From Candidatus Thorarchaeota archaeon (GTDB taxonomy: Archaea > Asgardarchaeota > Thorarchaeia > Thorarchaeales > Thorarchaeaceae), in contig JBHLRP010000053.1 in assembly GCA_048882485.1 (NCBI GenBank), positions 1 through 22,936 of the forward strand: a stretch of DNA of 22,936 nucleotides, in the 5' to 3' direction. The notes under the pieces were generated by a model. It saw only the letters and a list, made by a program, of their open reading frames with translations, had not been told where the DNA came from and did not search any database. The stretch's first letter is position 1, and every line of letters begins with the position of its first letter. A program made the translations under genes and the position numbers. Below, piece after piece: positions 1-20,507 of the stretch.

Positions 1-1001
1 GTTTCACGTATCATGTCGTACGTATTGTTGCTTGGACCACCATCGCATCCAAGTGAGACTGGTACGCCTATCTCCAGCATCTCTGGCACCCTAGCAAAGC
101 CAGATGCTAACTTCATATTGCTCGCTGGACAATGAGAGATATTCGACTGAGAGGCTGCAAGTCGCTTGAGGTCGTCATCATCGAAGTGAATGCCATGTGC
201 AAACACCATATCAGATCCCAAAAGATGGTTCTCCTTAGCAAACTCAGTGAGCGTCATGTTGTAGTTATCCCGTACATAGCGAACATCATCAATGACTTCG
301 CCCAGGTGCATGGTCATTCTAGTTTGCTTTTCTCTGGCTAGGCTCGCCACTTCCTGGAATAACTCAGGAGTTACTGCACCTAGAGACCTCAGACCATACC
401 AGACCTGAAGTCGACCATCCGCCTTTCCATGCCACTTTGAATGCATCTGAGCAGTTTCAGAGAGACAGGCGTCCTTGTCCTCGACCATTCCTGGATACAT
501 GATGTCAGGACTGTCTGCGTACCCTGTGGAGTCCATTATTATCTTTGAAAGCGCGGCCCGCATGCCAACTTCCTTCACAGCTTGTGCGATTCCGTCAAAG
601 CCGTAGCGCGTGTGAATCATACATTCAATGAAGGAGGTGGTACCAGTTCGAATCATCTCTGCCATACAGAGTTCCGCAGACACCCTCCCATCGTCTTTTG
701 TGAAGTTGCCCTGGAGGACCCACACATAGCTCTTCAACCAGTCAACAAGAGAGACATCATCTGCACAGCCGCGGATTAATGCCTGTGCCAGATGCATGTG
801 CGTATCAATCATTCCCGGCATGACTATCATATTATTGGCATCGATAACGAGCTCCGCTTTTTCCTTTGCGAGCTCATCAGTTTTGCCAACTCTAGCAATC
901 TTTTGGCCTTCAACCAAAACTGAGCCATTCTTAATGATACGACGTTTCGCGTCCATTGTGAGGACGTATCCATTCTTTATCAGAATCGAGTCCACTGACA
1001 T
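1..1001 (-). CDS. Amidohydrolase, MtaD/AtzA/SsnA-like nucleoside/heterocycle deaminase (3' end runs off the window)
   Basis: Not in the ORF track because it has no stop in the window. Manual translation from ATG at 1001 gives MSVDSILIKNGYVLTMD...MPGMIDTHMHLAQALIRG...MIRTGTT...MHLGE...FAHGIH...SHCPASNMKLASG...LGCDGGPSNNTYDMIRE. This has the metal-binding HxH, HxxE, H and D motifs of the family. An SD-like GAGGCG lies upstream. Confidence 0.9.
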   Translation of the reverse strand, partial: MSVDSILIKNGYVLTMDAKRRIIKNGSVLVEGQKIARVGKTDELAKEKAELVIDANNMIVMPGMIDTHMHLAQALIRGCADDVSLVDWLKSYVWVLQGNFTKDDGRVSAELCMAEMIRTGTTSFIECMIHTRYGFDGIAQAVKEVGMRAALSKIIMDSTGYADSPDIMYPGMVEDKDACLSETAQMHSKWHGKADGRLQVWYGLRSLGAVTPELFQEVASLAREKQTRMTMHLGEVIDDVRYVRDNYNMTLTEFAKENHLLGSDMVFAHGIHFDDDDLKRLAASQSNISHCPASNMKLASGFARVPEMLEIGVPVSLGCDGGPSNNTYDMIRE

Positions 1002-1063
1002 GCTTACGCCTCTGACTCTAATCAGACAGAGCGTACGACATAATGATTGTGGTCAGTATTAGC

Positions 1064-2839
1064 CTATTCGGCGAGTCGAAACTCAACAGATACTTCAAGT
1101 CCCTTCTCAGGCTGGCCCTTCACTCGATCATGCACATCCAACTTGGCTCCATACTTCTCTGCTAGCCTACGCACAAGATGCAGGCCCACCCCGCCGTATC
1201 TGCGACTAGCATCAAACAGTGCCTGTTTCTTAGAAACATTCAGGCCGGGACCGTTATCCGCAACGATGAGCTTGAACGCATCATGACTAATCTTCCCACT
1301 TATCCAAATCTGCGGATCATTCCCTGTGTTGTGTCTAACGCCATTCTCTATCAGATTCCAGAGAAGCTGTGAGAGAGCCCCATCTGCAAAGACCTTGACT
1401 TTCCTCGGAATTCCGTTGAGGTTTGGAGTGATGTTGTATTGACTCATGAGGAGTTCCATCTCCCCTTCCAGCACCTTCACCAGGTCTGTTGCGACGACAG
1501 GATCGGCTTTTGTCTCCTCCGCCTTTCTCACTTTCCCAATCAAGGTCAGACATCTGTGTGCTCCATCGAGGACGTATTGCTTGGCTCGCACTATTTCTTC
1601 AGGAGTAGATTCTCGAGCGAGAAAGTCGCCTCCGGCTAGTATTAGTTGCATCTGGTTGCCTACGTCATGCATGAGCAGGTCTAGCAGGAATCGTGATTCG
1701 TTCTCAGCGGCCTTTAGGGGTGATACATCTGTGAATATTGCAAAACTCCCTGTGTAATTGCCTTCAGGATCGCGGATGGGTCCGGCCGAAGCCATGGCCT
1801 GAATCAAGTCCCCGAACTTCGATAATAGGGTTGTTTCATAGTGCTCTACCTCTCCTCTTCTTCTTGCATCGCCTCGATTCTTGTACTCCTCTTCAGCTAA
1901 ATCGTGAAAGATAGTCGTCCCATGTTTGCCAATCAGCTCATTCTCTTCATACCCGAGCATCTCGTTGAGAGCGGCATTGGTGTATACAATTATGCCATTC
2001 TCATCATCAATTCCCATTCCCGCGGTCATGGTCTCGACCAGTCGGCGATAGTTATGCTCCGACTCCTCAAGGCGGCGTCTATCAGCTTTCTGTTCAGTTA
2101 TATCTATAGCCTGTCCGATGGTTTTGGTCGCACCATTCTTGCCTCTTATAGTAGTGACATGGATACGCACATATCGATCAGAGCCATCTCCTCTCCTGAT
2201 TTTGACATCGTAGGAAGGAGGCACCTTTTCACCAAGCTGTCGCTTCCTATATCGATCGGAAACCAGCTCTACACTGTCAGGATGAACAAGACTGCGGAAA
2301 TCGGATCCAATAAGATCGGCCCGCCTTAGTCCAACGATGTCGCACAGTTTATCGTTCACATATTCGAATCTGTACTTGTCATCGATTATACCAATCCCAC
2401 TGAAGGTAGAGTATTCCACAATGTATTCGAGAAGATCTTTTCGTTCTTCCAGCTTTTCCTCAAAGGCTGTACGCCTAGACAAATCGACTATGTATGCAAC
2501 AAATCCGATTATCTTACCTTGATGTACAATCTTATCAGAGTAGATTTGAGTCGGAACCTGCACTTTGTCTTTTCTGATGACTCGTAGACTTAATGATTTG
2601 GGCTCCTCCCCCACCTCTAGCTGCACAAGACCTCTGTGGACTAGGTCAATCTGCTCCTCTGCAACAAGTGTGTCAAGGTGTAACTTATTGTATACATCTT
2701 TCATCCCCATCTTGAAGAGCTCTAGTGCCTTGGGATTTGCATATCGTAGATTCAGGTCTGTATCAAATTCAAGAACTGGGATGAGCATATTATCTGCCAC
2801 TTCTCTGAAACTTTTCCGTATTTTGTCCATGATATTCAC
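1064..2839 (-). CDS. Soluble multi-PAS sensor histidine kinase (3 PAS/PAC + HisKA-like + HATPase_c)
   Basis: Three PAS-like repeats (YANPKALELF, YVNDKLCDIVG, YTNAALNEMLGY with PAC ends). H-box LLMHDVGNQ, N-box NLIENGVRH, G1 VADNGPG, G2 GGVGLHLV. No obvious TM helix. Start is GTG 2839 or ATG 2830. Confidence 0.9.
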   Translation of the reverse strand: MNIMDKIRKSFREVADNMLIPVLEFDTDLNLRYANPKALELFKMGMKDVYNKLHLDTLVAEEQIDLVHRGLVQLEVGEEPKSLSLRVIRKDKVQVPTQIYSDKIVHQGKIIGFVAYIVDLSRRTAFEEKLEERKDLLEYIVEYSTFSGIGIIDDKYRFEYVNDKLCDIVGLRRADLIGSDFRSLVHPDSVELVSDRYRKRQLGEKVPPSYDVKIRRGDGSDRYVRIHVTTIRGKNGATKTIGQAIDITEQKADRRRLEESEHNYRRLVETMTAGMGIDDENGIIVYTNAALNEMLGYEENELIGKHGTTIFHDLAEEEYKNRGDARRRGEVEHYETTLLSKFGDLIQAMASAGPIRDPEGNYTGSFAIFTDVSPLKAAENESRFLLDLLMHDVGNQMQLILAGGDFLARESTPEEIVRAKQYVLDGAHRCLTLIGKVRKAEETKADPVVATDLVKVLEGEMELLMSQYNITPNLNGIPRKVKVFADGALSQLLWNLIENGVRHNTGNDPQIWISGKISHDAFKLIVADNGPGLNVSKKQALFDASRRYGGVGLHLVRRLAEKYGAKLDVHDRVKGQPEKGLEVSVEFRLAE

Positions 2840-3000
2840 AGTTCCGAAACAAGGGTGGTATTGGCTATCTTTCTAATCCGCACAACTTCCAGCTGCTCCG
2901 CAGGTCATCAAAGCTCTATACCTGCACTGGATTGATTTCTTTACTTCAATCAGTATACTTGAGGGTTATTTGGACAGATAGAACAGGCTTCCAGAATGGT

Positions 3001-3012
3001 AACAACTTAAAG
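3001..3012 (+). promoter_or_regulatory. Possible BRE/TATA box for the first Fe-S/AOR operon
   Basis: AACAAC-TTAAAG about 60 nt upstream of TTG 3071, with SD-like GGAGAG at 3055-3060. Consensus match only. Confidence 0.3.
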
Positions 3013-3070
3013 GGCGAACTACCTCGGGAAGGAGGGTCACACGAGAGAGAGAACGGAGAGTATAGATGAC

Positions 3071-3562
3071 TTGAAAAGCCTACTCGCGATCGATGTTGAC
3101 AAATGCACAGGTTGCAGAAACTGCGAACTTGGTTGCTCAACAGCTCAGACCAAAACCTTCAATCCTGCAAGATCACGAATCACGATTCTCAAGAATGAGG
3201 CCGAGGGCACAATCGTACCAATGGTCTGTCTGCAGTGCGAAAGCGCACTATGTGTGGATGCATGTCCCACAGGTGCGATAGTGAAGAACGAGTATGACAC
3301 ACTCTATGTGCACAGTGGTGATTGTATAGGTTGTGGAAACTGCGTTACAGCCTGCATATACGGCGGCATCGAGATTGACCCGATCACCCACAAGGCCATC
3401 AAGTGCGACCTATGCGGGGGACAGCCAGCCTGTGTCAAGGCGTGCGACTATGGAGCCATAGAACTCGTGGGAACAAAAGCGGATGATTTCACGAGACGTG
3501 CCAGAGGAATCAGCGTCTTATCTCCATTCTATAGCCATGAAGAGCAGGAGGTTGAACCATGA
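3071..3562 (+). CDS. 4x[4Fe-4S] electron-transfer subunit (DmsB/HydN-like) of AOR-family enzyme 1
   Basis: Four Cys groups: CTGCRNCELGC, CLQCESALCVDACP, CIGCGNCVTAC, KCDLC...PACVKAC. ATGA overlap with the downstream AOR gene. Confidence 0.9.
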   Translation: MKSLLAIDVDKCTGCRNCELGCSTAQTKTFNPARSRITILKNEAEGTIVPMVCLQCESALCVDACPTGAIVKNEYDTLYVHSGDCIGCGNCVTACIYGGIEIDPITHKAIKCDLCGGQPACVKACDYGAIELVGTKADDFTRRARGISVLSPFYSHEEQEVEP

Positions 3563-5490
3563 CATTTCCATACAAAGGGTACGCAGGATATTATGCAGAG
3601 GTTGACCTCAACAAGGGCAAGGTACACAAGCGCGAGATGGAGAAGGAATGGGCAAGACTGTATCTAGGTGGCACGGGAGTAGCAGCAAGAATACTTTGGG
3701 AAGAAACCGGACCAGAAACTGACCCGCTCTCTCCGGAGAATGTTCTCATTGTAGGAACTGGACCCCTCACTGGAGTCATGTTCTCGCCATCTGGTCGCAT
3801 GATGTTTGCTTCGAAAGGACCACTTACTGGTGTTTGGGCGGAATCCCACGTGGGTGGTTTCTTAGGGCCTGAGATTAAATACGCAGGATATGACTTTGTG
3901 ATCTTCAAGGGTCGTTCACCAAAGCCAGTCTATCTCTTTCTGCGAGATGGAGAAGCTGAGCTACTTGATGCAGGTCATCTCTGGGGTAGAGAGACAGATG
4001 TGACCATGGATATGATACGTGAGGAGCATAGAGATCCTGAGATTAAGACAGGGATAATTGGACCTGCTGGAGAGAATGGCGTTCTATACTCAAGCATCAT
4101 TGTGGACCGTTATAGGGCGGCGGGAAGGGCAGGTCTCGGTACGGTGTTAGCCTCGAAGAATGTGAAAGCAATAGCAGCCTCTGGTTCACTGGCCCTCGAG
4201 GCTCATGATATGGACAAGTATCTTGAGGCCAATGAGATTGAGATGCAGAGAGTCTGTGATCCAATCTGGACAGAATCCCTTGCATCGCTCAGGAAATACG
4301 GGACCACAGACCTTGTGGCGATAATAAACGAGATTGGCCGATTACCAACAAAGAACCATTGGACAGGATTTTACGAGGATGCGGATGATATAGGCCCAGA
4401 GATTATTGCGCAGAAGTACAGAGTTGCACAAGAAGCATGTCATGGATGCGAAGTGGGCTGCAAGTACATCTATCGGGTTAAGGAGGGCAAGTTTGCATAT
4501 GGCCCTGCAGGAGGGCCAGAATATGAAACTATCATGGCTTTTGGCTCCAATTGCCTCAACAATGATATTGAGGCGGTCTTTCATCTCGGCACAAGATGTG
4601 ATCTTCTGGGGATGGATACTATTTCCTGTGGGAAGAGCATTGGATTTGCAATGGAGCTCTGGGAGAAAGGCATTATCACCAAGAAAGATACAGATGGCCT
4701 CGACCTCTCATGGGGGAATGTAGACTCCATGGTGGAACTTGTTGAGAAAATTGCCAAGCGGGATGGATTCGGCGACCTTCTCTCGAAGGGTGTCCGAAAG
4801 GCTGCTGAGATAATCGGTGGAGATGCATGGATGTATGCTGTGCATGTCAAGGGACTGGAAGCCTCCGGTCAAGACCCTAGAGCACATCAGTCAATCGGCC
4901 TCACCTATGCAACGAATGCGCGAGGAGCAGATCATCTGCGGAGCCTCTCAAGCCTTGAAGAACTGGGATACCCAGACATCGTTAGGGCTCGATTTGATGA
5001 TGAGAAGACTGAAGCAATACTTGACATAATGTCACCAAAACACAAAGGCGAGGTGGTTTGGGATATCGAGGACCTCTACGCACTGGTTGACAGTGCTGTG
5101 ATATGTAAGTACGGTACAATGTGGCCACCTATCTACTATTTCGATACGTTCACCAATGTGATAGCTCCTCTTACAGGAATGGAGGAATGGTCACAACCCA
5201 AGTTCGTTAAACAAGCTGCCGAACGCATCAACCACTTGAGAAGAGCTTACAATCATCGCCTGGGTATAACAAGAAAGGAGGAAAACCTGCCCAAACGACT
5301 CCTGAAAGAGCCTATGCCCACAGGTCCTTCAAAGGGAGGTCTCCCTGACCTAGATGAGATGCTCGACGAATACTATGACTACAGGGGATGCGACAGAGAA
5401 ACGGGCTATCCAAAGAAGGAGAAGCTCGAAGAGCTTGGCCTTGACTTCGTAGTTGAAGATCTTGGCAAACGAAAGATGCTTGCAAAGTAG
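3559..5490 (+). CDS. aor: Aldehyde:ferredoxin oxidoreductase family (tungstopterin) protein, paralog 1
   Basis: AFOR motifs GPLTG, AAGRAGLGTVLASKNVKAI, YGT, CHGCEVGC (C294/297/301), GGPEYET, CDLLGMDTIS, ARGADHL, DSAVICKYG (C516), MLDEYYDYRG. Confidence 0.93.
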   Translation: MTFPYKGYAGYYAEVDLNKGKVHKREMEKEWARLYLGGTGVAARILWEETGPETDPLSPENVLIVGTGPLTGVMFSPSGRMMFASKGPLTGVWAESHVGGFLGPEIKYAGYDFVIFKGRSPKPVYLFLRDGEAELLDAGHLWGRETDVTMDMIREEHRDPEIKTGIIGPAGENGVLYSSIIVDRYRAAGRAGLGTVLASKNVKAIAASGSLALEAHDMDKYLEANEIEMQRVCDPIWTESLASLRKYGTTDLVAIINEIGRLPTKNHWTGFYEDADDIGPEIIAQKYRVAQEACHGCEVGCKYIYRVKEGKFAYGPAGGPEYETIMAFGSNCLNNDIEAVFHLGTRCDLLGMDTISCGKSIGFAMELWEKGIITKKDTDGLDLSWGNVDSMVELVEKIAKRDGFGDLLSKGVRKAAEIIGGDAWMYAVHVKGLEASGQDPRAHQSIGLTYATNARGADHLRSLSSLEELGYPDIVRARFDDEKTEAILDIMSPKHKGEVVWDIEDLYALVDSAVICKYGTMWPPIYYFDTFTNVIAPLTGMEEWSQPKFVKQAAERINHLRRAYNHRLGITRKEENLPKRLLKEPMPTGPSKGGLPDLDEMLDEYYDYRGCDRETGYPKKEKLEELGLDFVVEDLGKRKMLAK

Positions 5491-5537
5491 GCCAGGATTC
5501 CGAAAGGTCCAAGAGCAAGTTCACGTGCAATGACATT

Positions 5538-6494
5538 ATGTCAGCGGGAATCATTGACCTTGGTCCTGCTAAGTTCACTAGTGATGGCTCAAGCGACACA
5601 TTCAGAGAAATCGTTTCCGGGCTCAAATTGAAACCACCTGTAATAATCAAGCCGAACTGGTCATCTTCAATGGTATACACGGAGAGTGAGATTCTAGACT
5701 GGGTGCTTTCAGCAATTGAAGGCGAAGTTCTGATTGTCGAGAGTTACGCAGCTTGGCGCACCCACCTATTCATACAGCACAAAGGACCTAGAGATGATGA
5801 GTTCCTCAAGAGGTTGGGAAATCAGAAGAGAGCTGATTTTAGAGAGAACGATAAGTGGTTCCTGCGACATTCAGGAATTGACAGGGTACTAGAAAAGCAC
5901 GGTGTGGAATATCTCAATCTCTCAGAAGAATTATGGGCCAACCGTATGTGCGATTCAGATGTGATTGTTGCTCTCGTGGAAGCACAATCATCAATAGTTG
6001 AGAATCCAGAATTATACGAACTCGTTCCTGAACGGCTCTATGAGTTGAGGGGAGGCACCCTACTGAATCTAACCAAACCTAAAAGATCACTGAAAGCGCG
6101 GCACGTGTCGCTCACTCTAAAGAACTTGTTTGGAATGATTCCAAGTCCTTGGAGAGGGAAATACCACGGCGATGATGATTCCCTTCTTTGTCCAAATATT
6201 GTAGACATCAACAAGGTGTATAATGCGCTGTTTGATGTGAAAGGGATCATAGAAGCGGTGTATTCAACCTCAGAAACCGTGGATAATATTCTTCATCCCG
6301 CAATACATCGAGATATGGGATTGATTTGGAGTGGGATTGACACCCTAGAGTTAGATGCTCTTGTGTGTTCTCAGCTGGGGCTGAACCCAAGCCAAGTCGA
6401 CTACCTTCAATTGGCTTCAGAGAAGATCAAGCAGTGGAATGAAAGCACTGTGAAGGTTGGAATGGCTAATCCAGTTAGATATCCCGGTGTCTAG
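5538..6494 (+). CDS. DUF362-family protein
   Basis: VIIKPN near the N-terminus, SLTLKNLFGMIP and D..ELDA motifs typical of DUF362. No appended ferredoxin domain. Confidence 0.7.
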   Translation: MSAGIIDLGPAKFTSDGSSDTFREIVSGLKLKPPVIIKPNWSSSMVYTESEILDWVLSAIEGEVLIVESYAAWRTHLFIQHKGPRDDEFLKRLGNQKRADFRENDKWFLRHSGIDRVLEKHGVEYLNLSEELWANRMCDSDVIVALVEAQSSIVENPELYELVPERLYELRGGTLLNLTKPKRSLKARHVSLTLKNLFGMIPSPWRGKYHGDDDSLLCPNIVDINKVYNALFDVKGIIEAVYSTSETVDNILHPAIHRDMGLIWSGIDTLELDALVCSQLGLNPSQVDYLQLASEKIKQWNESTVKVGMANPVRYPGV

Positions 6495-6541
6495 ATTCCT
6501 GTCTGGGAACTCTTATGTTGAAGGACTCTAGACAGAATTGC

Positions 6542-7636
6542 ATGGCAGACCTTAGAGTAGAGATAGCTGGGATGAGGTTCAGAAATCCTGTTTTCACTGC
6601 GGCAGGACCTACCTCAAGAGATGGAATTACTTTGCTCAATGCCGCAGCTGGAGGCGCAGGAGGACTAGTGGCAAAGACAGTCAGTGTCAAACCTGCGGAT
6701 GTGCCCAAGCCCAACATGGCTGCATTAGGCAGCGGGCGTCGTGAGTCAAGGCGAGGAATCCTAAATGCAGAGTTATGGAGCGAATTGCCCCTAGAACGAT
6801 GGTTAGAGAACGAGTATGAGATTGCCCTGGGCTCAGGACTTCCCGTAATTGCGAGTGTCGGCTACACGCCAGAGGAAGTAGCCGAAATTGCTCCAAAGAT
6901 TCAGGCAAAAGGTGTCAGTGCGATTGAATTCAGCACACACTATGTCGGAGGCCACGTAGAGATAGCAAAGTCCCTGAAAGAGTCTGTGGACATCCCAATA
7001 TTTGCCAAGCTCAGCCCCAAAGTCGATGTTGCAACGATAGCAAAGGAATTGGACCCCTTCGTCGACGGGATTGTTGGAATCAATACATATGGACCGGTTC
7101 TTAGGATTGACATTGAAACAGGTAAGCCGGTCCTTGGAAGCAACTTGGGAGAGGGATGGATGAGTGGCGCATCCCTCAAACCCATCGCAATGAAGTGTAT
7201 CGCGGACATTGCGAGGAACACCAAGAAGCCAGTCATAGCAGTGGGTGGAGTCACGACAGGAGAGGACGTGATCGAATTCTTGATGGCTGGAGCATCCGCG
7301 GTTGAAGTATGTACAGCAGCAATCCTGCAGGGTGACACAGTCTATGGTCAGATTGCCGGAGAGATTGCCAATTGGCTGGATGAGCATGGATATGACTCAG
7401 TGAATGATATCAAGGGAATAGCCCTCAAGCATCTTGAGAAGGGAGTAAAATTGAGCCCGCCCCCCAAAGTAGACCTCGAGAAATGCACTAGGTGTGGGCT
7501 GTGCCCAAAGTCATGTGTGTACCACGCGATTAATCTGGACAAAGGGAAGGGGACTTTCTCTATTGACGCTGAGAAATGCGAAGGGTGCGGCATGTGCATC
7601 TCAGTATGTCCATATTTTGCACTAAGCATGGATTAG
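6542..7636 (+). CDS. Dihydropyrimidine dehydrogenase PreA / class-1 dihydroorotate dehydrogenase-like FMN enzyme with C-terminal 2x[4Fe-4S] domain, non-canonical active site
   Basis: MADLRVEIAGMRFRNP..AAGP, AKT, NAELWSE, FAKLSP, GINT, SGASLKPIA, GGV..GEDVIEFLMAGASAVEVCT. C-terminal CTRCGLCPKSC and CEGCGMCISVCP. ATG 6542 preferred over 6515 because it gives the family-typical N-terminus. Confidence 0.85.
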   Translation: MADLRVEIAGMRFRNPVFTAAGPTSRDGITLLNAAAGGAGGLVAKTVSVKPADVPKPNMAALGSGRRESRRGILNAELWSELPLERWLENEYEIALGSGLPVIASVGYTPEEVAEIAPKIQAKGVSAIEFSTHYVGGHVEIAKSLKESVDIPIFAKLSPKVDVATIAKELDPFVDGIVGINTYGPVLRIDIETGKPVLGSNLGEGWMSGASLKPIAMKCIADIARNTKKPVIAVGGVTTGEDVIEFLMAGASAVEVCTAAILQGDTVYGQIAGEIANWLDEHGYDSVNDIKGIALKHLEKGVKLSPPPKVDLEKCTRCGLCPKSCVYHAINLDKGKGTFSIDAEKCEGCGMCISVCPYFALSMD

Positions 7637-7659
7637 ACCTTCTCGACACGCATGGATAA

Positions 7660-8865
7660 CTAGAGATACAGAATTTCATCGAGTCTGTCTGTTAGAAGAA
7701 CTGCTCTGTCTGTGCTAACTAGGTAGTCATTCTCTATTCGTACGCCTCCATACTCCTTGAAGTAGACACCCGGTTCAACTGTAATCACATGACCAGACTT
7801 GAAGTGATCTTGACGATTATATAGAGATGGATACTCATGGACCTCAAGACCAATGCCATGTCCAAGCCCATGGGTCATTCCTTCTGTGGCCTCGGGATTG
7901 AGACGACGAGAGTCGTATCCTGAACGCTTGAGACTCTCAGCGCACGCCATGTTGACATCATCGATTTGAACCCCATCTTTGAGAGCATCAACTGCTGCAC
8001 CGACTGACGCCTGAACTGACTCGAACATGTCGCATAGTTTCTTACTGACTGTACCCTTAACAAAGGTACGAGTCACGTCTGCCACATATCTCTCCTGTTT
8101 CAATCTGGGAAACACATCAAGTATAATTGGCTCCTCAGCCTTGAGCTCATCCTCAAGCGCACCTAGATAATGCCAGTCAAACCCTTTCTTTCCTACAGCC
8201 AAGATTGTGTCCATCGCAGCCTCTGCACCATGATCGAGGAGAAAGTGCTCAAGCGCTAGTTTTATCCGTCCAACCGTCAATGCCTCGCCTTCATACATCA
8301 GGGTTTTGTTGGGACCTATGTCTGAGTCCTTGACCATCTCAAGCAGTTTGGTGATTCCACCCACGGTTGCATCTCCCGCCTTCTTTATTGCGTCAATCTC
8401 AGCAGCGGATTTCGTTGCACGCGCTTCCTTCAACAGTTCTGGAACTACTTTCACTTCGTACCCCATTTTTTGAATGATTACAAGTCGTTCAGCAGGGAAG
8501 TGATCAGGTACACCGACAACTTTGCCAGTAAAGACTTTCTTCATAACGTCTTTCACAAAGACGCCAATATTATCACGCGCGCTTTTCCCCTCCTTCATTA
8601 GTCCGATGTAGATCTCGGACAAGTCATGTGTTCTTCTTATTCGGCTCTCCTTCAGAACCCGTTCCAGAGTGTTGAGGAAGGTGGCCACAACTGGTTCTTC
8701 GCCTCGGTTTTTCACGTATGTAATCTGGTCTGTCGACCTGAATCCAGTCAGCCAATAAATGTCTGGAGTTTCGTACACATTTCCGGTAGCAATTATTCCA
8801 TCAACCTCATAGTTCTCCATTAGCGAGTCCAAATCATCCAGCACTGCATCCACCGGTTTGCTCAC
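7660..8865 (-). CDS. Xaa-Pro aminopeptidase / prolidase (peptidase M24B)
   Basis: ILDVFP, YVADVTRT, HGLGHGIGLEVHE, TVEPGVY, GGVRIE: all five metal ligands present. GTG start. Confidence 0.9.
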   Translation of the reverse strand: MSKPVDAVLDDLDSLMENYEVDGIIATGNVYETPDIYWLTGFRSTDQITYVKNRGEEPVVATFLNTLERVLKESRIRRTHDLSEIYIGLMKEGKSARDNIGVFVKDVMKKVFTGKVVGVPDHFPAERLVIIQKMGYEVKVVPELLKEARATKSAAEIDAIKKAGDATVGGITKLLEMVKDSDIGPNKTLMYEGEALTVGRIKLALEHFLLDHGAEAAMDTILAVGKKGFDWHYLGALEDELKAEEPIILDVFPRLKQERYVADVTRTFVKGTVSKKLCDMFESVQASVGAAVDALKDGVQIDDVNMACAESLKRSGYDSRRLNPEATEGMTHGLGHGIGLEVHEYPSLYNRQDHFKSGHVITVEPGVYFKEYGGVRIENDYLVSTDRAVLLTDRLDEILYL

Positions 8866-8893
8866 ATACTAACTGACGAAAAAGGGTTGCCAT

Positions 8894-9787
8894 TCAATAC
8901 TGAGCGTAAGGCTTCATTCTTCTCTCAACCTGTTCGCGGGTCGGCATGTCATACGGACCGGCTGTTTCGACATTGAAGGAGGAACATGTGGCACCAAACA
9001 GACCCGCGCGCTTCACATCACCAGTTCTCATATATTCCAGGAGGAAGGAGATGACATATACATCCCCGCAACCCGTCGGGTCAGTCTGAGCATTGGCAAG
9101 CACAAGTGGAATGTCTTTCTGCGTGTTTCGAGTATAAACTGTAGATCCTCTACGGTCCCGTGTCACTAGGACCATACGCGGACCGATGTTGAGGAGCTCG
9201 GTCACTGCCGACAGCTCTGACTGAGAATCATACGCGAGTTGGAGTTCGGCCTCATCAAATTTCACAACATCCGCGAGTGCAAGAACCTGGTCTCTATCAG
9301 GCCAATCTCTCTCAATGATCTGTTCGTCTTCGATTCCTCTCAGAAAACCCTGACCATCAATAGAGAGCAGCGGGCCCCCTACTCGCACAGACTCAATGAC
9401 TGAATAGGGAATCTCGTTAGCTGTCAGCGGACTGAAGTGATAGATGCTTGCGCCTATGTGTTGAGGAAGAATGTCAGTAGGGCGTATCGGTGAACCTATA
9501 CTTTCAACCCTCTGCGTTCGGGTTCCCTCCTGATCATATTCATTGATGAACCTTGTACTCTTCTCCCCTCGTTTCTGGACTCCTGAGATGTTGATTCCAG
9601 CATCCTCAAGAGTGTTTAGGTAATCATCCTCGAAGTCCGCACCCACGCAACTTACAATTCCGGCGCCTAAAGCACCAATCTTGGGAGCGATCATGGCGTA
9701 TGCTGGGCCGCCCCCAATGGATTCAGTTCTACTCTCAGGAGTGATTATGAGGTCTCTGCTCAGGTGTCCAATCACCACAATCTCCAT
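8894..9787 (-). CDS. PfkB/ribokinase-family carbohydrate or nucleoside kinase
   Basis: N-terminal VIGHLSRD and GGGPAY; C-terminal PfkB signature DPTGCGD. Confidence 0.88.
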   Translation of the reverse strand: MEIVVIGHLSRDLIITPESRTESIGGGPAYAMIAPKIGALGAGIVSCVGADFEDDYLNTLEDAGINISGVQKRGEKSTRFINEYDQEGTRTQRVESIGSPIRPTDILPQHIGASIYHFSPLTANEIPYSVIESVRVGGPLLSIDGQGFLRGIEDEQIIERDWPDRDQVLALADVVKFDEAELQLAYDSQSELSAVTELLNIGPRMVLVTRDRRGSTVYTRNTQKDIPLVLANAQTDPTGCGDVYVISFLLEYMRTGDVKRAGLFGATCSSFNVETAGPYDMPTREQVERRMKPYAQY

Positions 9788-9920
9788 AGGCCTAACCTCT
9801 GTCGACGCCTTTTGTCACCTTAACGGATGCTAAAGCAATAGCACTGAAGCTAATAATTCCTATGCATCAGGAGCCATTCGCAGAACACTGAAAGCGTATG
9901 ATAATCCTCGTTCATAAGTG

Positions 9921-9928
9921 TTAAAATA
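9921..9928 (+). promoter_or_regulatory. Possible TATA box for the moaD-amidohydrolase-FeS-aor operon
   Basis: TTAAAATA ending 27 nt before TTG 9955, in a divergent intergenic region. Confidence 0.35.
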
Positions 9929-9954
9929 GCATGAGCCCACGTTGAGAAACTGAG

Positions 9955-10245
9955 TTGAAACGCTTGGCTGTAGTCACAGTGAAATTCTTTGCAACGGTGC
10001 GGGAGGCTGTCGGAACCAGAAGTACTGAGATTGAAGCTGATGACATCAAGGGCTTGCTTGAGAAACTCAAAGCATTATACGGAAAACGGTTCATTGAAAC
10101 AGTGATAGATGAGGAAACTGACAGGCTGAAAAGGTTCTATCAGTGCATGATCAATGGAACGCGTATCGAACGCCTTGATGGGTACGACACCTTGCTAAAA
10201 GACGGCGATGCAGTAGCTCTCTTCCCCCCAGTGGGAGGCGGCTAG
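9955..10245 (+). CDS. moaD: MoaD/ThiS/SAMP1-like ubiquitin-fold sulfur carrier
   Basis: VTVKFFATVRE N-terminus and LKDGDAVALFPPVGGG C-terminal di-glycine. Located at the head of an AOR operon. Start is TTG 9955 or 9964. Confidence 0.88.
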   Translation: MKRLAVVTVKFFATVREAVGTRSTEIEADDIKGLLEKLKALYGKRFIETVIDEETDRLKRFYQCMINGTRIERLDGYDTLLKDGDAVALFPPVGGG

Positions 10246-10278
10246 GCTATTCGATGACTGCAGAGGGGGCAATTTTGG

Positions 10279-11637
10279 ATGGTAGATCTTGTAGTTAAGA
10301 ATGCCAAGCTATTGCTCGAGTCAGGGCTGATTAGAGGCGGCCTTGGAATAGATGCTGGTCGAATCTGTAGTATTGCTACCGATGAGCATTTGCCTGATGC
10401 GTCTACTGTCATTGATGCAGAAGGAAAAATCGTTATTCCAGGACTAATAGATGGTCATGCGCATCTACATGATCCGACTATGCTGAATCACGAAGATTTC
10501 ACCACTGGTTCACGTGCAGCTGCGGCTGGGGGCGTCACAACCGTGATAGACATGCCATTGACCAATCAGGTTGATTCGCCCAAAGCCGTAGAAGAAAAGA
10601 TATCCCAAGGCCAATCAATGTCTTTAGTGGATTTCTCCTTCTATGCAGGCATGTTGAATTCTGATAATTACACCATAATTCCTGCTATGGTTGAAAAGGG
10701 GATTGCAGCTTTCAAGGCCTTCACCTGTGACCCATATCTAGTGAGTGATGGCGTATTAGTTCAGGCATTCAGTACCGCCTCGGAATGTGGGGCACATGTC
10801 ACTCTACACGCGGAGAACCAAGGTGTACTTGATGAATTTGGTCGAGACCTTGAGGGAGAATGGGATGCACCAATAAGCCATTCACTAGCCAGACCAAACT
10901 TGGCTGAACAGCTCGCTGTGAAGCAAGCCACCTCAATTGCAGAGTTGACAGGGGGCCATCTTCATGTTGCGCATATCACAACCAAAGAGGGCTTGAGAGA
11001 GGTCGAGCGGGCTAAGCTGAAGGGGACTATGGTCACCACTGAAGTATGCCCTCATCATTTGGTCTTTCAAAGAGATGAAATGAACCGACTTGGACCGAGG
11101 AGCAAGATGAACCCGCCGCTAAGAGCAGAAGTAGACAGGTCTGCGCTATGGTCAGCATTGCTTCGAGGAGCAATCGATATGACCGTCAGTGATCATGCAC
11201 CATGCCCCTTGGAGATGAAGGAAGCGGGAATGGAAGACATCCGTGAAGCTTGGTCAGGTGTTGATGGAGTCCAGATCATATTGAGAGTGCTGCTTTCAGA
11301 AGGCATCAACAAAGGAAGAATATCATTCACTCGACTATCGCAAGTTGCATGCAAAAATCCAGCCAAATTGTTTGGCCTCTATCCAAGAAAAGGCGTTTTG
11401 GCTGTTGGTGCTGATGCAGATTTCGTGATGATTGATCCGTGGCGAGAAGAGAAGCTGACAGATGATATGATGTTCTCGAAGTGTGGCTGGACACTATATG
11501 AAGGCAAGACAATGAAAGGAGTACCAACAATGACGGTTGTCCGCGGGACCCCAGTTTATGAGGAGGATAGGATGTTAGTCAAGCCGGGCCATGGAAGATT
11601 CCAAGCAATGACAGGGATGACACCAATGGAGAACTGA
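10279..11637 (+). CDS. Cyclic amidohydrolase (allantoinase/hydantoinase/dihydroorotase superfamily), most allantoinase-like
   Basis: PGLIDGHAHLHDP, AAAGGVTTVIDMP, AFKAF (carboxy-Lys), LHAEN, HVAH, EVCPHHL, KMNPPLR, SDHAPC, NPAKLFGLYPRKG, GADAD. Confidence 0.88.
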   Translation: MVDLVVKNAKLLLESGLIRGGLGIDAGRICSIATDEHLPDASTVIDAEGKIVIPGLIDGHAHLHDPTMLNHEDFTTGSRAAAAGGVTTVIDMPLTNQVDSPKAVEEKISQGQSMSLVDFSFYAGMLNSDNYTIIPAMVEKGIAAFKAFTCDPYLVSDGVLVQAFSTASECGAHVTLHAENQGVLDEFGRDLEGEWDAPISHSLARPNLAEQLAVKQATSIAELTGGHLHVAHITTKEGLREVERAKLKGTMVTTEVCPHHLVFQRDEMNRLGPRSKMNPPLRAEVDRSALWSALLRGAIDMTVSDHAPCPLEMKEAGMEDIREAWSGVDGVQIILRVLLSEGINKGRISFTRLSQVACKNPAKLFGLYPRKGVLAVGADADFVMIDPWREEKLTDDMMFSKCGWTLYEGKTMKGVPTMTVVRGTPVYEEDRMLVKPGHGRFQAMTGMTPMEN

Positions 11638-11640
11638 AGA

Positions 11641-12129
11641 ATGACCGAGTTAAAGTTTGTATTTGGGGACCCTGAAGTCTGCACAGGATGTATGATATGC
11701 GTCAATGTATGCAGCATGCGGTATTCCAAGGTAATTGGCCCTCGCTGGTCTCGGGTCAGAGCAGTAAGAATTGAGCCGGGACTTGATTTTCCTCTCTTCT
11801 GCAGAAATTGCGAAGACGCTCCATGCATGGCAGCTTGTCCAAACGAGGCGATAAGTCGCACCTCGAAGGGTGTCGTCATTGTGAACAACAAGAAATGTAC
11901 AGGCAGTGGTGAGTGCGTCAAGGCATGCCCCTATTATGCAATCAGATTACATCCTGATACCGGGAAGGCAATCAAATGCATCCAGTGCGATTCATGTGTC
12001 GATCGATGCCCGGTTAATGCAATCTGGATCACTACTGAGAGTGAATTGAACAAGAGGGACTCGGATGGTCGCCTATCAGCACTTTATAGTAAGTATGAGG
12101 ATGAGCTGTACAATAAGGAGGATATATGA
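11641..12129 (+). CDS. Fe-S electron-transfer subunit (DmsB/HydN-like) of AOR-family enzyme 2; group III has Cys>Ser
   Basis: CTGCMICVNVC, CRNCEDAPCMAACP, CTGSGECVKACP, KCIQCDSCVDRCP. ATGA overlap with the downstream AOR gene. Confidence 0.9.
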   Translation: MTELKFVFGDPEVCTGCMICVNVCSMRYSKVIGPRWSRVRAVRIEPGLDFPLFCRNCEDAPCMAACPNEAISRTSKGVVIVNNKKCTGSGECVKACPYYAIRLHPDTGKAIKCIQCDSCVDRCPVNAIWITTESELNKRDSDGRLSALYSKYEDELYNKEDI

Positions 12130-14009
12130 TGAAAGGAGTCGGAGGCAATAATCTCTGGATTGATCTGACCAAGGGCGAGATTGAGAAAAGACCGGTTGAA
12201 GAGGAAATGGTCAGGGAGTATCTCCTAGGAGCAGGCTATCTCTCACGAGTTCTATATGATAACATTCCTGTTGGAATTAATCCGCTGTCTCACGAGAATG
12301 TGCTTGGAATTGCCACAGGACTTCTCACGGGATCAATGTTTCCGCAGGCGTCACGTCATGTGGTTGCTGCACTATCACCTCTAACCGATGTCTGGGGAGA
12401 ATCTCATGCGGCGGGATTCTGGGGTGCCGAACTGAAATTTGCTGGTTATGATGCAATCATCTTCACTGGAGCATCATCAGACCCAGTATATCTCCATATC
12501 CAGAATGAAACCGTTGAACTTCTAGATGCGTCTGACATATGGGGTACATCAGTCTTTGAAACAGATGATTGGATTCGTGAAAAGCATAGCAAGAGAGCAA
12601 GAGTGCTGTCGATAGGACAGGCAGGAGAAAACAAGGTTCGATTCGCAGCTATAATGAATGATCGAGACCGTGCATCCGCGAGATCAGGACTCGGAGCAGT
12701 AATGGGTTCGAAAAGACTCAAAGCAATATCAGTGAGAGGGTCTGGAAAACTGGAGGTTGCAGACCCAAAGAATTACCTACCTCAGATGGACATCTTCTAT
12801 GAGAGGATGCTGGCAAATCCCTTCACAAAAGAACGAGCCAAGTATGGGACTACAAATCTGGTCGAGTTGATGAATCATATTGGTAGACTCCCAAGCTATA
12901 ACATGCGCCAAGGCGTCTTTGAGGGCTTTGAGAAGATCAGTGGGCACACAATCACAGAGAAGCATCTAGTGAAGCCAAGGTCTGACTGGAGTTGTCTGCA
13001 GAGATGTGGTAGATACACTAGGGTGAAAGAAGGGCCATACAAATACATTGGTGGGTCACCGGAATTCGAGTCACAGTCATCTCTCGGTTCCCGTTGTGGA
13101 AATGACAATCTAGAGTCGGTGCTCTACAGTCATCACTTGGCCAATATGTATGGGATGGATACGATTTCTCTTGGGGCCACCATATCTTGGGCAATGGAGG
13201 CGTGGGATGAAGGACTTCTGACTGCTGAAGACACAGGTGGTATCGATCTGAGTTGGGGTAATCATGAGACTGTTGTCAAGCTCACAAAGATGATTGCCCT
13301 ACGAGAAGGCTTTGGTGATGTCCTTGCGGAGGGCAGTGTACGGGCTGCAGATAAGATTGGTCGCGGAACAGAGAAGTTCGTCATGACAGTGAAAAAGCAA
13401 GAGATTGCAGGACAAGAACCACGGGCTCAGAAGTCAATGGGACTAGCTGCTGTCACTGCAGCAAGGGGTGCAGACCATCTCTACGCGTTCCCAGTTCTCG
13501 ACGAAGCGGGATTTGACAAGGAGATTAAGGAGCGATTTGGGGAACAGTATCTACCTGAAATGGCAGACCGACTCAATCCAAAATACAAGGGAATCATGGT
13601 CAAGGAATGTGAGGACTTCATGGTGATGGTCGAGAGCGTTGGTCTATGCAAGTATGGAACGCAGATTCCTCCTGAATTCTACTATAATGATGTTGCTCAG
13701 GCTCTAAAGATACACAATGGCATAGACCTAACAAGTAAGGAACTGCAGGTAATTGGAGAGCGCATTGTAAATCTCAATCGATTGTTCAATGTTGCTCGTG
13801 GTATCACTCGTCGTGATGATCAACTCCCTGATAGGCTGACGAAAGAAGGAGCGCCAAAGGGACCCTCACCAGGAGAGGTGGTCGAACTAGATCAAATGCT
13901 TGATGAGTACTATGAACAACGTGGATGGGACTTGGAAACAGGACTGCCCACAATGGAAACTTTGAAGCGACTTGGTCTTGAAAAGGAAGGAAAAGCGGTC
14001 ATCAAATAG
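12126..14009 (+). CDS. aor: Aldehyde:ferredoxin oxidoreductase family (tungstopterin) protein, paralog 2; first cluster Cys replaced by Asp
   Basis: SPLT, RSGLGAVMGSKRLKAI, YGT, DWSCLQRC, GSPEFES, YGMDTIS, ARGADHL, ESVGLCKYG, MLDEYYEQRGWD. Confidence 0.93.
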   Translation: MMKGVGGNNLWIDLTKGEIEKRPVEEEMVREYLLGAGYLSRVLYDNIPVGINPLSHENVLGIATGLLTGSMFPQASRHVVAALSPLTDVWGESHAAGFWGAELKFAGYDAIIFTGASSDPVYLHIQNETVELLDASDIWGTSVFETDDWIREKHSKRARVLSIGQAGENKVRFAAIMNDRDRASARSGLGAVMGSKRLKAISVRGSGKLEVADPKNYLPQMDIFYERMLANPFTKERAKYGTTNLVELMNHIGRLPSYNMRQGVFEGFEKISGHTITEKHLVKPRSDWSCLQRCGRYTRVKEGPYKYIGGSPEFESQSSLGSRCGNDNLESVLYSHHLANMYGMDTISLGATISWAMEAWDEGLLTAEDTGGIDLSWGNHETVVKLTKMIALREGFGDVLAEGSVRAADKIGRGTEKFVMTVKKQEIAGQEPRAQKSMGLAAVTAARGADHLYAFPVLDEAGFDKEIKERFGEQYLPEMADRLNPKYKGIMVKECEDFMVMVESVGLCKYGTQIPPEFYYNDVAQALKIHNGIDLTSKELQVIGERIVNLNRLFNVARGITRRDDQLPDRLTKEGAPKGPSPGEVVELDQMLDEYYEQRGWDLETGLPTMETLKRLGLEKEGKAVIK

Positions 14010-14021
14010 GAGAAGCAGACT

Positions 14022-14522
14022 ATGTCAATATTCCAGAATGAGATGGATATCACTGTCTATGAACACTTCAAGGAGAAGAGCTCGAGGCTAGTGTCACTTA
14101 TCCGCGAATTAGAGCAAGTCTTGGGCAAAGACAAGGCACATGAGATTGTGTCCAATTGGGCAGAGAAGAATGCAGTAAATGATGTGCGAAGCGTTGTTGA
14201 GTCCTTGGATAGGCCAATAAAATCGTTTGATGACGTAAAGGTGCTGCTTAGACATTGGGTGGATGCTCTCAACAAAGACAACATGGAAGTCGTCGAAATC
14301 ACTGAGGAAACCTCTACCAAGTCAATCTGTATTGTTTCAGAGTGTATCTACGCAAAGGTGTTCAATGATCTTGACGCGGCTGATATAGGATATTTGCTTC
14401 ATTGTAAGCAGGACTTTCCAGCAACACCAGCTATTCACCCAAATATGAGCTTGAGGCGGTCCAAGACGCTGATGGAAAAACACGACTGCTGTGACTTCGA
14501 GTACTACTGGGAGGACAAATAG
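14022..14522 (+). CDS. L-2-amino-thiazoline-4-carboxylate (ATC) hydrolase-family protein
   Basis: Signature EC.YA...DIGY.LHC..D...LRRSKTLM...CCDF. Lies 12 nt after the aor stop. Confidence 0.75.
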   Translation: MSIFQNEMDITVYEHFKEKSSRLVSLIRELEQVLGKDKAHEIVSNWAEKNAVNDVRSVVESLDRPIKSFDDVKVLLRHWVDALNKDNMEVVEITEETSTKSICIVSECIYAKVFNDLDAADIGYLLHCKQDFPATPAIHPNMSLRRSKTLMEKHDCCDFEYYWEDK

Positions 14523-14558: not shown

Positions 14559-14795
14559 TCAGTCCGATGCAGCACAGACGTTGGTTACTGTGTCCTTCAC
14601 TCCATCGACCTTTCGCAGCGTATCCACGACAAAGGAGCTCAATGACTCCGGAGTCTTGAAAGAACCTTTGATCAAGAGGTCATATGCACCATAGATCAGG
14701 TGGGCTTCTTCAACTTCTTCCAATTCTCTGACATGAACAAGCACATCACGAGCTTTTGCCGACTCGATTTTTGCCATGATAAAGGCTGTAATCAT
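14559..14795 (-). CDS. Stand-alone Lrp/AsnC ligand-binding (RAM) domain protein, 78 aa, no HTH
   Basis: MITAFIMAK...VEEAHLIYGAYDLLIK...LRKVDGVKDTVT. SD-like GGTGGGTGA just upstream of ATG 14795. The longer 126-aa ORF-track version overlaps the divergent promoter and gene. Confidence 0.85.
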   Translation of the reverse strand: MITAFIMAKIESAKARDVLVHVRELEEVEEAHLIYGAYDLLIKGSFKTPESLSSFVVDTLRKVDGVKDTVTNVCAASD

Positions 14796-14938
14796 TACTT
14801 TCACCCACCGAAAGACTACTTCTTTGTACATCCGCTGTGAGAGAATAAAACTGTTCCTTCTTAGCGGCAAATCCATCTCCTTAGCACTTATTAATTGGTC
14901 TTGAAAGCTTGGACGTGAACATGGGTGGCGAACTCTCA

Positions 14939-20443: not shown

Positions 20444-20507
20444 TATCAGAGCCCCCAACCAGCAGACGGATCATTTGCACCGTCGTCCAATCAAATGTCT
20501 GTTTAAT

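Follow-up and report, generated by a model that had tools for sequence, protein, structure and literature searches.

The stretch of DNA analysed here (the window) comprises positions 1 to 22,936 of contig JBHLRP010000053.1 from a Candidatus Thorarchaeota archaeon (assembly GCA_048882485.1), a metagenome-assembled genome (MAG) of 3.96 Mb that is 90.5% complete and whose other contigs are labelled C2, C5, C8 and so forth. It holds an island in which two operons, each with a polyferredoxin gene and a gene of the AOR family of tungsten-type oxidoreductases (WORs), are combined with genes for a PreA-like reductase, a cyclic amidohydrolase and a deaminase-like protein. Genes were called from the listing of open reading frames (ORFs) together with Pfam and NCBIfam scans; an Rfam scan of the window gave no match. 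The island contains the following genes.

3–1001, minus strand: TRZ/ATZ-family amidohydrolase, DadD/MtaD-like deaminase (Amidohydro_1); partial, running off the start of the window
1064–2839, minus strand: PAS-domain sensor histidine kinase (Pfam/NCBIfam), divergent from operon 1
3071–3562, plus strand: FeS1, partner of AOR1, a polyferredoxin of WorS type bearing four [4Fe-4S] motifs; operon 1
3559–5490, plus strand: AOR1, WorL large subunit, Class II tungsten-type oxidoreductase of the AOR1 subclade (AFOR_N and AFOR_C); operon 1
5538–6494, plus strand: DUF362 protein (39.5 bits), between AOR1 and the reductase; operon 1
6515–7636, plus strand: PreA/UacX-like flavin mononucleotide (FMN) TIM-barrel reductase (DHO_dh plus a C-terminal 2×[4Fe-4S] domain); operon 1
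7660–8865, minus strand: M24-family metallopeptidase, creatinase/prolidase fold (Pfam/NCBIfam)
8894–9787, minus strand: PfkB-family sugar/nucleoside kinase, with weak matches to ribose-1-phosphate and nucleoside kinases
9955–10245, plus strand: MoaD/ThiS-like small protein (WorX-like), 76 bits on moaD_arch against a cutoff of 49.5; operon 2
10279–11637, plus strand: cyclic amidohydrolase of the allantoinase/hydantoinase/dihydroorotase group, HyuA-like (NCBIfam); operon 2
11641–12129, plus strand: FeS2, WorS-type polyferredoxin, partner of AOR2; operon 2
12126–14009, plus strand: AOR2, WorL of the AOR2 subclade (AFOR_N and AFOR_C); operon 2
14022–14522, plus strand: ATC_hydrolase-family protein (cyclic amidine ring opener family), 61.8 bits; operon 2
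14559–14939, minus strand: Lrp/AsnC-type regulator, flanking operon 2 at the end of the island

Operon 1 thus reads FeS1, AOR1, DUF362, PreA-like and operon 2 reads MoaD/ThiS-like, cyclic amidohydrolase, FeS2, AOR2, ATC_hydrolase, both on the plus strand, with the M24 and PfkB genes between them on the minus strand and the histidine kinase gene (1064–2839) standing between the DadD-like gene and operon 1. In each operon the FeS and AOR genes share 4 bp. An earlier sequence-only reading of this DNA had listed two FeS–AOR modules with MoaD, DUF362, PreA-like, amidohydrolase, ATC hydrolase and PfkB genes, and all of these were recovered by the Pfam and NCBIfam scans, tightly spaced; the M24 gene (7660–8865) is an island member additional to the gene types it named. 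Its placement of an MtaD/SsnA-like deaminase next to the operons holds for the DadD/MtaD-like TRZ/ATZ gene at 3–1001 on the minus strand, but the SsnA-like gene lies on contig C8. The top NCBIfam match of the DadD-like protein is 5'-deoxyadenosine deaminase (277 bits on 333 amino acids); its 157 bits on SsnA, from a partial ORF and against a cutoff of 444, ruled out an assignment as SsnA. A deaminase at 7660–8865 was likewise ruled out, as the Pfam match there is to M24 peptidases. The M24 protein is, by its family, a candidate amidino/ureido or peptide hydrolase, and the MoaD/ThiS-like protein probably serves in maturation of the pterin cofactor.

The arrangement was compared across 20-kb regions from 18 genomes. 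The order DadD-like, histidine kinase, FeS1, AOR1, PreA-like, followed by M24 and PfkB and then by MoaD, amidohydrolase, FeS2, AOR2 and AsnC, is kept in at least nine Thorarchaeaceae genera at 55–85% protein identity while the flanking genes vary, which argues that it is more than a product of chance. PreA-like orthologues occur in every sampled Thorarchaeaceae genus. The PAS histidine kinase and the AsnC-type regulator are syntenic in most Thorarchaeaceae loci, and the M24 and PfkB genes are syntenic across the family. DUF362 and the ATC hydrolase are lineage-specific additions: the former is present in the closest relatives only and missing from most Thorarchaeaceae loci, while the latter is restricted to loci of genus g1.

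The linkage, whose loss from other genomes would have spoken against the sequence-only reading, is retained not only within Thorarchaeaceae but also in other Asgard families and other phyla. Asgard family f12 (loci L031 and L044) shows ThiS, SsnA-like, FeS, AOR1, PreA-like, ThiS and a second FeS–AOR2 module, and in L044 an M24 gene is also near the cluster. A compact locus of 11.6 kb in family f15 (L132) carries AOR1–FeS1 on the minus strand, followed by SsnA-like, TRZ deaminase, PreA-like, FeS, MoaD, AOR3, FeS2 and AOR2. The same parts recur in a Heimdall genome of family f18 (L051, L131). A Nitrososphaeria-labelled MAG (L050) combines three FeS–AOR modules with a carbamoyltransferase, a HyuA-like protein, two TRZ/SsnA-type genes and a ThrC-like pyridoxal phosphate (PLP) enzyme, and a deltaproteobacterium (L072) has TRZ, FeS, AOR and PreA. 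DadD-like orthologues are found in the same clusters in f12 (54%), in Heimdall (53%) and in a deltaproteobacterium, and the ThiS-like gene recurs in clusters outside Thorarchaeaceae.

AOR2 and the PreA-like reductase are also distributed together. Among 301 Asgard genomes from 30 families, PreA-like proteins (E ≤ 1e-80) were found in f1 (70 of 76 genomes), f12 (14/19), f15 (1/4), f18 (1/1) and f6 (1/1) and in none of the other 25 families, and AOR2 orthologues (E ≤ 1e-200) in f1 (68/76), f12 (13/19), f15 (1/4) and f18 (1/1), with none in f6 or in the other 25. The two therefore coincide in four of the 30 families, with f6 as an additional one for the PreA-like protein. At the level of genomes, 80 have both, eight have PreA-like only, four AOR2 only and 209 neither, and the two genes usually share one contig. 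Orthologues of the SsnA-like protein occur in the same families plus f22 (16/21).

No Xdh-family (PF02738) match was found in 81 Thorarchaeaceae genomes (this one and 80 family relatives), 19 f12 genomes, the Heimdall genome or the deltaproteobacterium, in agreement with what the sequence-only reading had led us to look for. Xdh-family matches are present in 20 of the 22 f22 genomes, a family with the SsnA-like protein and without AOR2 and the PreA-like protein, and in all five genomes in which no AOR lies close to the PreA-like/SsnA pair.

Both AOR proteins match AFOR_N and AFOR_C over their full lengths (239 and 413 bits for AOR1, 241 and 425 bits for AOR2), and with their domains, FeS partners and 4-bp overlaps both modules are Class II WORs (WorLS); in the 2026 WOR classification this class consists of WorL plus WorS, and WorX denotes a ThiS-like gene (PMC13328260). 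All 16 cysteines of FeS1 are invariant (alignment A4). A third type, AOR3, is encoded on contig C2 with its own FeS gene, and its neighbourhood shows the FeS partner only. In trees built from the paralogues of this genome and all cluster-associated AORs, AOR1, AOR2 and AOR3 form a single clade with a support of 99 (SH-aLRT and SH-like), while PfAOR, AorB, BamB and WOR5 were placed by bit scores only. The phmmer scores are 520–744 bits within the AOR1–3 clade versus 406–427 bits to solved AORs. Seven to eight other AOR paralogues of the genome, including a classical-type one on C5, fall outside the clade, an outcome in favour of the sequence-only reading, and each of the three subclades has members from several Asgard families together with the Nitrososphaeria-labelled MAG. 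Among solved structures both window AORs score best with the classical aldehyde oxidisers 9mqx, PfAOR (1aor) and AorB (8c0z) at 369–427 bits; FOR, WOR5 and BamB reach 211–277 bits, with BamB at about 234.

The active site of the clade is altered. Four residues are conserved in aldehyde-oxidising WORs, namely Thr243, Glu313, Tyr427 and His448 in PfAOR numbering (PMC13328260). Thr243, Glu313 and His448 are conserved in the AOR1–3 clade, and Tyr427 is replaced by Gln in every one of its members, so that the four-residue set is incomplete; the classical-type paralogues on C5 and C20 keep the Tyr. The four [4Fe-4S] cysteines (PfAOR Cys288, Cys291, Cys295 and Cys494) are all present in AOR1, while the first of them, Cys288, has become Asp in all eight members of the AOR2 subclade. 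A role is known for five among the 92 clades of WORs, and benzoyl-CoA reductase is the only non-aldehyde WOR named in the 2026 classification, which makes no mention of purine, amidohydrolase, dihydroorotate, hydantoin or Asgard (PMC13328260). Elsewhere in this genome, an AOR paralogue with an FeS partner (C8:72986–74113) has one in-frame TGA inside its AFOR_C match, which could be a selenocysteine codon, a sign of a pseudogene or a sequencing error.

The PreA-like protein has the architecture of the ferredoxin-linked UacX/clostridial PydA type, a PF01180 FMN barrel followed by a C-terminal 2×[4Fe-4S] domain, without a flavin adenine dinucleotide (FAD)/NAD domain or a PreT partner. It probably starts at Met10 (position 6542): orthologues align from residue 9–10, and the first nine codons (6515–6541) are probably untranslated, as the matching upstream stretch contains stop codons in several relatives. 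Its score on PreA (NF006183) is 182 bits against a cutoff of 335. Lys54, Asn84, Glu138, His142, Tyr143, Lys165, Asn190 and the eight cluster cysteines are invariant, and an invariant E-x-S-T-H-Y motif (EFSTHY in the window protein) occupies the site at which DPD, canonical PreA and the clostridial and deltaproteobacterial homologues keep a catalytic Cys loop (alignment A3). A search of 1.84 billion representatives, together with a scan of named genomes, shows that the clade, with members 42–56% identical to the window protein, extends to Hadarchaeales, Desulfurococcales, Anaerolineae, spirochaetes and others.

About 0.4 kb upstream, members of this clade usually have a gene for an SsnA-like amidohydrolase, with 369–410 bits on NF005540. 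This linkage is seen in Hadarchaeales, Desulfurococcales, Heimdall, f12, f15, a spirochaete and other loci; for the window genome, the SsnA-like gene is on C8 instead. The spirochaete operon (L067) contains Xdh subunits (the Mo subunit with 627 bits to XdhA), a HyuA-like protein, an SsnA-like protein and the loop-less PreA-like protein (45% identity), and has the layout known from the published bacterial route with its UacX variant. A Hadesarchaea MAG (L065, 6981–15440) has two adjacent reductase–amidohydrolase pairs and a HyuA-like gene: one pair consists of loop-less PreA-like and SsnA-like proteins; in the other, canonical PreA (466 bits) stands with true SsnA (572 bits) and, as a third member, a GltD/PreT-like protein. 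A complex prediction for FeS1 with the PreA-like protein gave a score of 0.00, which weighs neither for nor against binding.

The cyclic amidohydrolase scores below the cutoffs for allantoinase (TIGR03178, 351.8 versus 357.85) and D-hydantoinase (TIGR02033, 316.8 versus 393.25) and passes the domain-level pyrC_multi model (310 versus 279). The Thorarchaeal SsnA-like protein on C8 is 52% identical to the cluster-associated ones, and its neighbourhood (Amidohydro_2, a HEAT-repeat protein, DUF362) shows no clear further pathway genes. A DUF362 gene is thus near both the island reductase (5538–6494) and the C8 SsnA-like gene (L127:2318–3520, about 6 kb upstream of it). A further recurrent grouping joins an SsnA-like gene to genes for a carbamoyltransferase and a PLP enzyme of the ThrC (threonine-synthase) type (L129 and L130 of f22, L046, L050), also at loci that have neither AOR nor PreA-like genes; the Thorarchaeal orthologue of the PLP enzyme is on C23. 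A second cluster of heterocycle type is found on contig C67 (L042:4040–9232) and comprises genes for a hydantoinase-like amidohydrolase, an aminotransferase of class III, an OTC-like carbamoyltransferase and a divergent PreA-like protein that scores 287.6 bits and has the Cys loop.

The closest described counterpart is the reductive urate pathway of bacteria. There, XdhD/DOPDH (2,8-dioxopurine dehydrogenase) makes 2,8-dioxopurine, which is dearomatised by YgfK or, in C. difficile, by UacX (PF01180), a protein with FMN and Fe–S but no FAD that is probably ferredoxin-dependent; SsnA and HyuA open the rings, and YgeW or UacY followed by YgeY and YgeX complete the breakdown, the E. coli cluster being XdhD–YgfM, YgfK, SsnA, HyuA, YgeW, YqeA, YgeY and YgeX (bioRxiv 10.1101/2025.05.19.654654, 10.1101/2025.04.24.650524). 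In the same 2025 work on urate and 2,8-dioxopurine, the C. sporogenes route from hypoxanthine needs xanthine dehydrogenase (XDH) twice and DOPDH once. The sequence-only reading had invoked both reductive pyrimidine degradation by PreTA/HydA and the urate cluster; the urate-type analogue stands, and the island is closer to the UacX–SsnA–HyuA route than to the pyrimidine one. The computational checks that it had put forward all spoke in its favour. Full-text literature searches found no paper that joins AOR-family enzymes with SsnA or purine degradation, in line with its view that no pathway of this composition had been described.

On balance we lean towards reading the island as the core, in Thorarchaeota, of a so far undescribed variant of anaerobic reductive degradation of purine-type (N-heterocyclic) rings, one linked to tungsten AORs. 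Gene content, synteny, co-distribution, the lack of any Xdh match and the clade-specific active-site changes are direct observations; the substrate, the direction of electron flow, the use of tungsten and any physical complex are inferred. Tungsten as the metal of the AORs is suggested by their family membership. In such a pathway the DadD-like deaminase and the PfkB kinase would supply nucleoside or base material, and the PreA/UacX-like FMN/[4Fe-4S] protein would dearomatise the heterocycle with low-potential electrons. Ring opening would fall to the SsnA-like amidohydrolase of C8 and the HyuA-like cyclic amidohydrolase, and removal of ureido groups could involve the M24 and ATC-hydrolase-like proteins together with carbamoyltransferases whose genes lie outside the island. 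AOR1, AOR2 and, from its separate locus, AOR3, each with its own four-cluster polyferredoxin, would replace the Xdh-family Mo enzymes of bacteria (XDH, XdhD/DOPDH) and catalyse the redox steps that depend on the pterin, either on the ring or on ring-derived carbon, exchanging electrons with the reductase through the polyferredoxins, while MoaD would contribute to cofactor maturation. More tentatively, AOR1–3, with their Gln for Tyr427 and, in AOR2, an Asp-ligated cluster, may act directly on purine-type rings, whose carbons they would hydroxylate or dehydroxylate in the manner of XDH and 2,8-dioxopurine dehydrogenase; by analogy, the two XDH steps and one DOPDH step of C. sporogenes would parallel the two or three AOR types per cluster. 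The Xdh complementarity and the altered active site speak slightly for direct action on the ring.

A number of observations weigh against this interpretation. AOR1 keeps Thr243, Glu313, His448 and the full Cys motif (CxxCxxxC...C), and the solved structures nearest to both AORs belong to broad-range aldehyde oxidisers (406–427 bits), which makes ordinary aldehyde chemistry plausible. The catalytic Cys loop (S/A-C-P) of the reductase is deleted, over about 19 residues, in the window protein and its clade, and the chemistry of the PreA-like protein may for this reason differ. The cluster-associated SsnA-like proteins stay under the SsnA cutoff of 444 bits, and in Thorarchaeaceae the SsnA-like gene is unlinked to the island. 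No YgeX or YgeY equivalogue was found in the genome, where the best scores are 55.9 versus 532 and 134.5 versus 321.5. Neither 2,8-dioxopurine nor any other purine need be the substrate, since these two equivalogues are lacking, the SsnA- and HyuA-like proteins fall below their cutoffs and the reductase has no Cys loop. Operon 2 is distant from operon 1 in two relatives, lying 1.8 Mb away in G004 and on another contig in G019, although it is retained in both. The three-AOR MAG L050 encodes a single Xdh, away from the cluster, and a spirochaete (L076) with a distant AOR 6 kb from its PreA-like/SsnA pair has six. Finally, related genomes are not independent and MAGs are incomplete, so that the Xdh complementarity is to be read as a pattern over a handful of lineages and not as a statistic.

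The most substantial alternative keeps the pathway but makes the AORs conventional. Their substrate would be a carbon of aldehyde, aminal or formyl type set free by ring reduction and hydrolysis, or a co-fermented aldehyde. Through the polyferredoxins the low-potential electrons would reach the PreA-like protein, and the electron loop so formed, closed or self-priming, would push forward a dearomatisation that is otherwise unfavourable. Such a loop is favoured by the retention of Glu313 and His448 and by the nearness to classical AORs, and Thr243 and all cluster cysteines of AOR1 as well as the nearest solved structures fit it too. Moreover, at least five lineages have FeS, AOR and PreA-like genes directly next to each other or in translational coupling, which recalls the gene order of Class III WORs, with a flavoprotein after WorLS (PMC13328260), and Li et al. 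describe the reduction step alone as thermodynamically unfavourable, with UacX probably needing reduced ferredoxin. However, the published purine route has no known aldehyde intermediate, a conventional role by itself explains neither the missing Xdh nor the two or three diverged AOR modules per cluster, and the change of Tyr427 to Gln in the whole clade and of Cys to Asp in AOR2 points to a changed substrate or redox tuning. We consider conventional AORs possible but doubtful. Somewhat less probable still is that the substrate is another N-heterocycle, such as a pyrimidine, a hydantoin, a creatinine-type compound, a pterin or a modified-nucleoside base, and that only the enzyme types are common with the urate pathway. 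The missing YgeX/YgeY equivalogues, the amidohydrolase scores below the equivalog cutoffs and the lost Cys loop would agree with this, as would the M24 (creatinase fold) and ATC-hydrolase-like genes in the island and the Hadesarchaeal locus, where a loop-less reductase–SsnA pair beside a canonical PreA–SsnA–PreT-like set suggests two substrates. Yet in the spirochaete L067 the loop-less protein is the sole reductase of a uricolytic-type Xdh–HyuA–SsnA operon, a purine-type deaminase homologue recurs in the clusters, and the canonical pyrimidine pair of this genome is encoded elsewhere.

It is far less probable that the neighbourhood is coincidental, the AORs being general aldehyde:ferredoxin oxidoreductases of peptide fermentation that lie beside nucleobase genes. 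AORs are abundant among Asgard genomes, and at least five of the 11 paralogues in this one have FeS partners, but the confinement of AOR2 and the PreA-like protein to the same four of 30 families (80 genomes with both, eight and four with one, 209 with neither), the recurrence of the linkage in several phyla and the monophyly of the AORs with their common signature substitutions argue against chance. A role of the reductase and amidohydrolase in PyrD/PyrC biosynthesis or in an ordinary PreTA/dihydropyrimidinase route, which would rest on family-level Pfam and NCBIfam matches and on the pyrC_multi score, is effectively refuted by the census of paralogues. The genome encodes four DHO_dh proteins and five cyclic amidohydrolases, among them a better pyrD candidate on C14 (214 bits) and a likely pyrC on C25, and because of these the window genes are not its pyrD or pyrC but extra paralogues, contrary to what the sequence-only reading had named as fatal to its proposal. 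True PreA (446 versus a cutoff of 335) and true dihydropyrimidinase (492 versus 393) are together on C13, while the window reductase reaches only 182 bits on PreA and has no Cys loop. Neither a PreT nor a PyrK neighbour is present in the island: GltD/PreT-like genes of this genome are confined to C7, C31 and C46 and stand beside none of its PreA paralogues, and the absence of preT next to the reductase is in favour of the sequence-only reading.

Beyond the island, the window contains a LigB-family protein (16024–16803, minus strand) that scores 275.6 bits on 4,5-DOPA extradiol dioxygenase (YgiD-type; equivalog cutoff 233), an O2-dependent ring-cleaving enzyme type that is odd for a presumed strict anaerobe. 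A 370-amino-acid protein (14909–16021, plus strand) weakly matches the N-terminal lipocalin domain of CrtC (24 bits), and its ORF shares about 30 bp with the end of the AsnC-type gene on the opposite strand. A 497-amino-acid ORF (18037–19530, minus strand) without a Pfam or NCBIfam match adjoins an ABC-transporter ATPase (19658–20458) and may be its permease partner.

Anaerobic degradation of the purine ring was resolved only in 2025, and only for bacteria with Mo/Se xanthine-dehydrogenase-type enzymes. The island suggests an archaeal tungsten-AOR version in Thorarchaeaceae and in a few other Asgard, archaeal and bacterial lineages. If this reductive ring-degradation reading is correct, an uncharacterised WOR clade would gain a physiological role, WOR chemistry might be extended to N-heterocycles, nucleobase fermentation would be added to Asgard sediment metabolism, and two pterin enzyme families would provide a clean case of non-orthologous displacement; concrete proteins and substrates can now be named for assays. 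Should the AORs act directly on the ring, Asgard and other anaerobic archaea would ferment purines with tungsten enzymes instead of Mo/Se hydroxylases, and this would be the first heterocycle-directed WOR activity and the second non-aldehyde ring chemistry of the family after benzoyl-CoA reductase.

Compared with the bacterial urate cluster, the island has the same kind of PF01180 FMN reductase with Fe–S and without an FAD/NAD module (UacX type). Reductases of the island type pair with SsnA-like and HyuA-like proteins, carbamoyltransferases occur in related clusters, the pterin enzyme is encoded within the cluster, and a spirochaete carries the same loop-less reductase in an Xdh–HyuA–SsnA operon. 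In contrast to the urate cluster, no Xdh-family protein was found in this genome or its 80 relatives and two or three AOR–polyferredoxin modules are present instead, the reductase lacks the Cys loop, YgeX/YgeY equivalogues are missing and the SsnA-like gene is unlinked in Thorarchaeaceae; in addition, the island has M24, PfkB, DadD-like, ATC-hydrolase-like and DUF362 genes. With PreT–PreA/DPD and dihydropyrimidinase it has in common the TIM-barrel FMN domain with 2×[4Fe-4S] and a cyclic amidohydrolase as the neighbour type, but PreT is absent, the Cys loop is deleted, the PreA score is far under the cutoff and the canonical pair is elsewhere in the genome.

As for the Class II and Class III WORs (WorLS: PfASOR/WOR5 and CbGOR; WorLSN: AorABC of Aromatoleum aromaticum; PfAOR, clade 87), the island resembles them in AFOR_N and AFOR_C, an adjacent four-cluster WorS, a ThiS-like WorX-type gene, conserved Thr243, Glu313 and His448, and top PDB scores with 9mqx, 1aor and 8c0z. 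It differs in that AOR1–3 form a separate clade with Tyr427 changed to Gln throughout and Cys288 to Asp in AOR2, in that a PreA-like FMN protein occupies the place of the FAD subunit WorN of Class III, and in that the clade occurs in strict association with heterocycle-catabolic genes, a context that does not appear in the 2026 classification (PMC13328260). BamB, the class II benzoyl-CoA reductase and the only WOR with a known action on an aromatic ring, is likewise a WOR-family enzyme with an FeS partner and provides a ring-dearomatisation precedent for non-aldehyde chemistry, but it is distant (about 234 bits, versus 406–427 to classical AORs) and the island has no BamDEFGHI-type partners. 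The Xdh family (XDH, XdhD/DOPDH, aldehyde oxidases) shows no homology to the AORs, and fold and cofactor are unrelated (bis-pterin W versus Mo=S/Se with 2Fe-2S and FAD). Nevertheless, the AORs hold the same place in the cluster with a complementary phyletic distribution, and both would be pterin enzymes that attack sp2 C–H or C–OH carbons.

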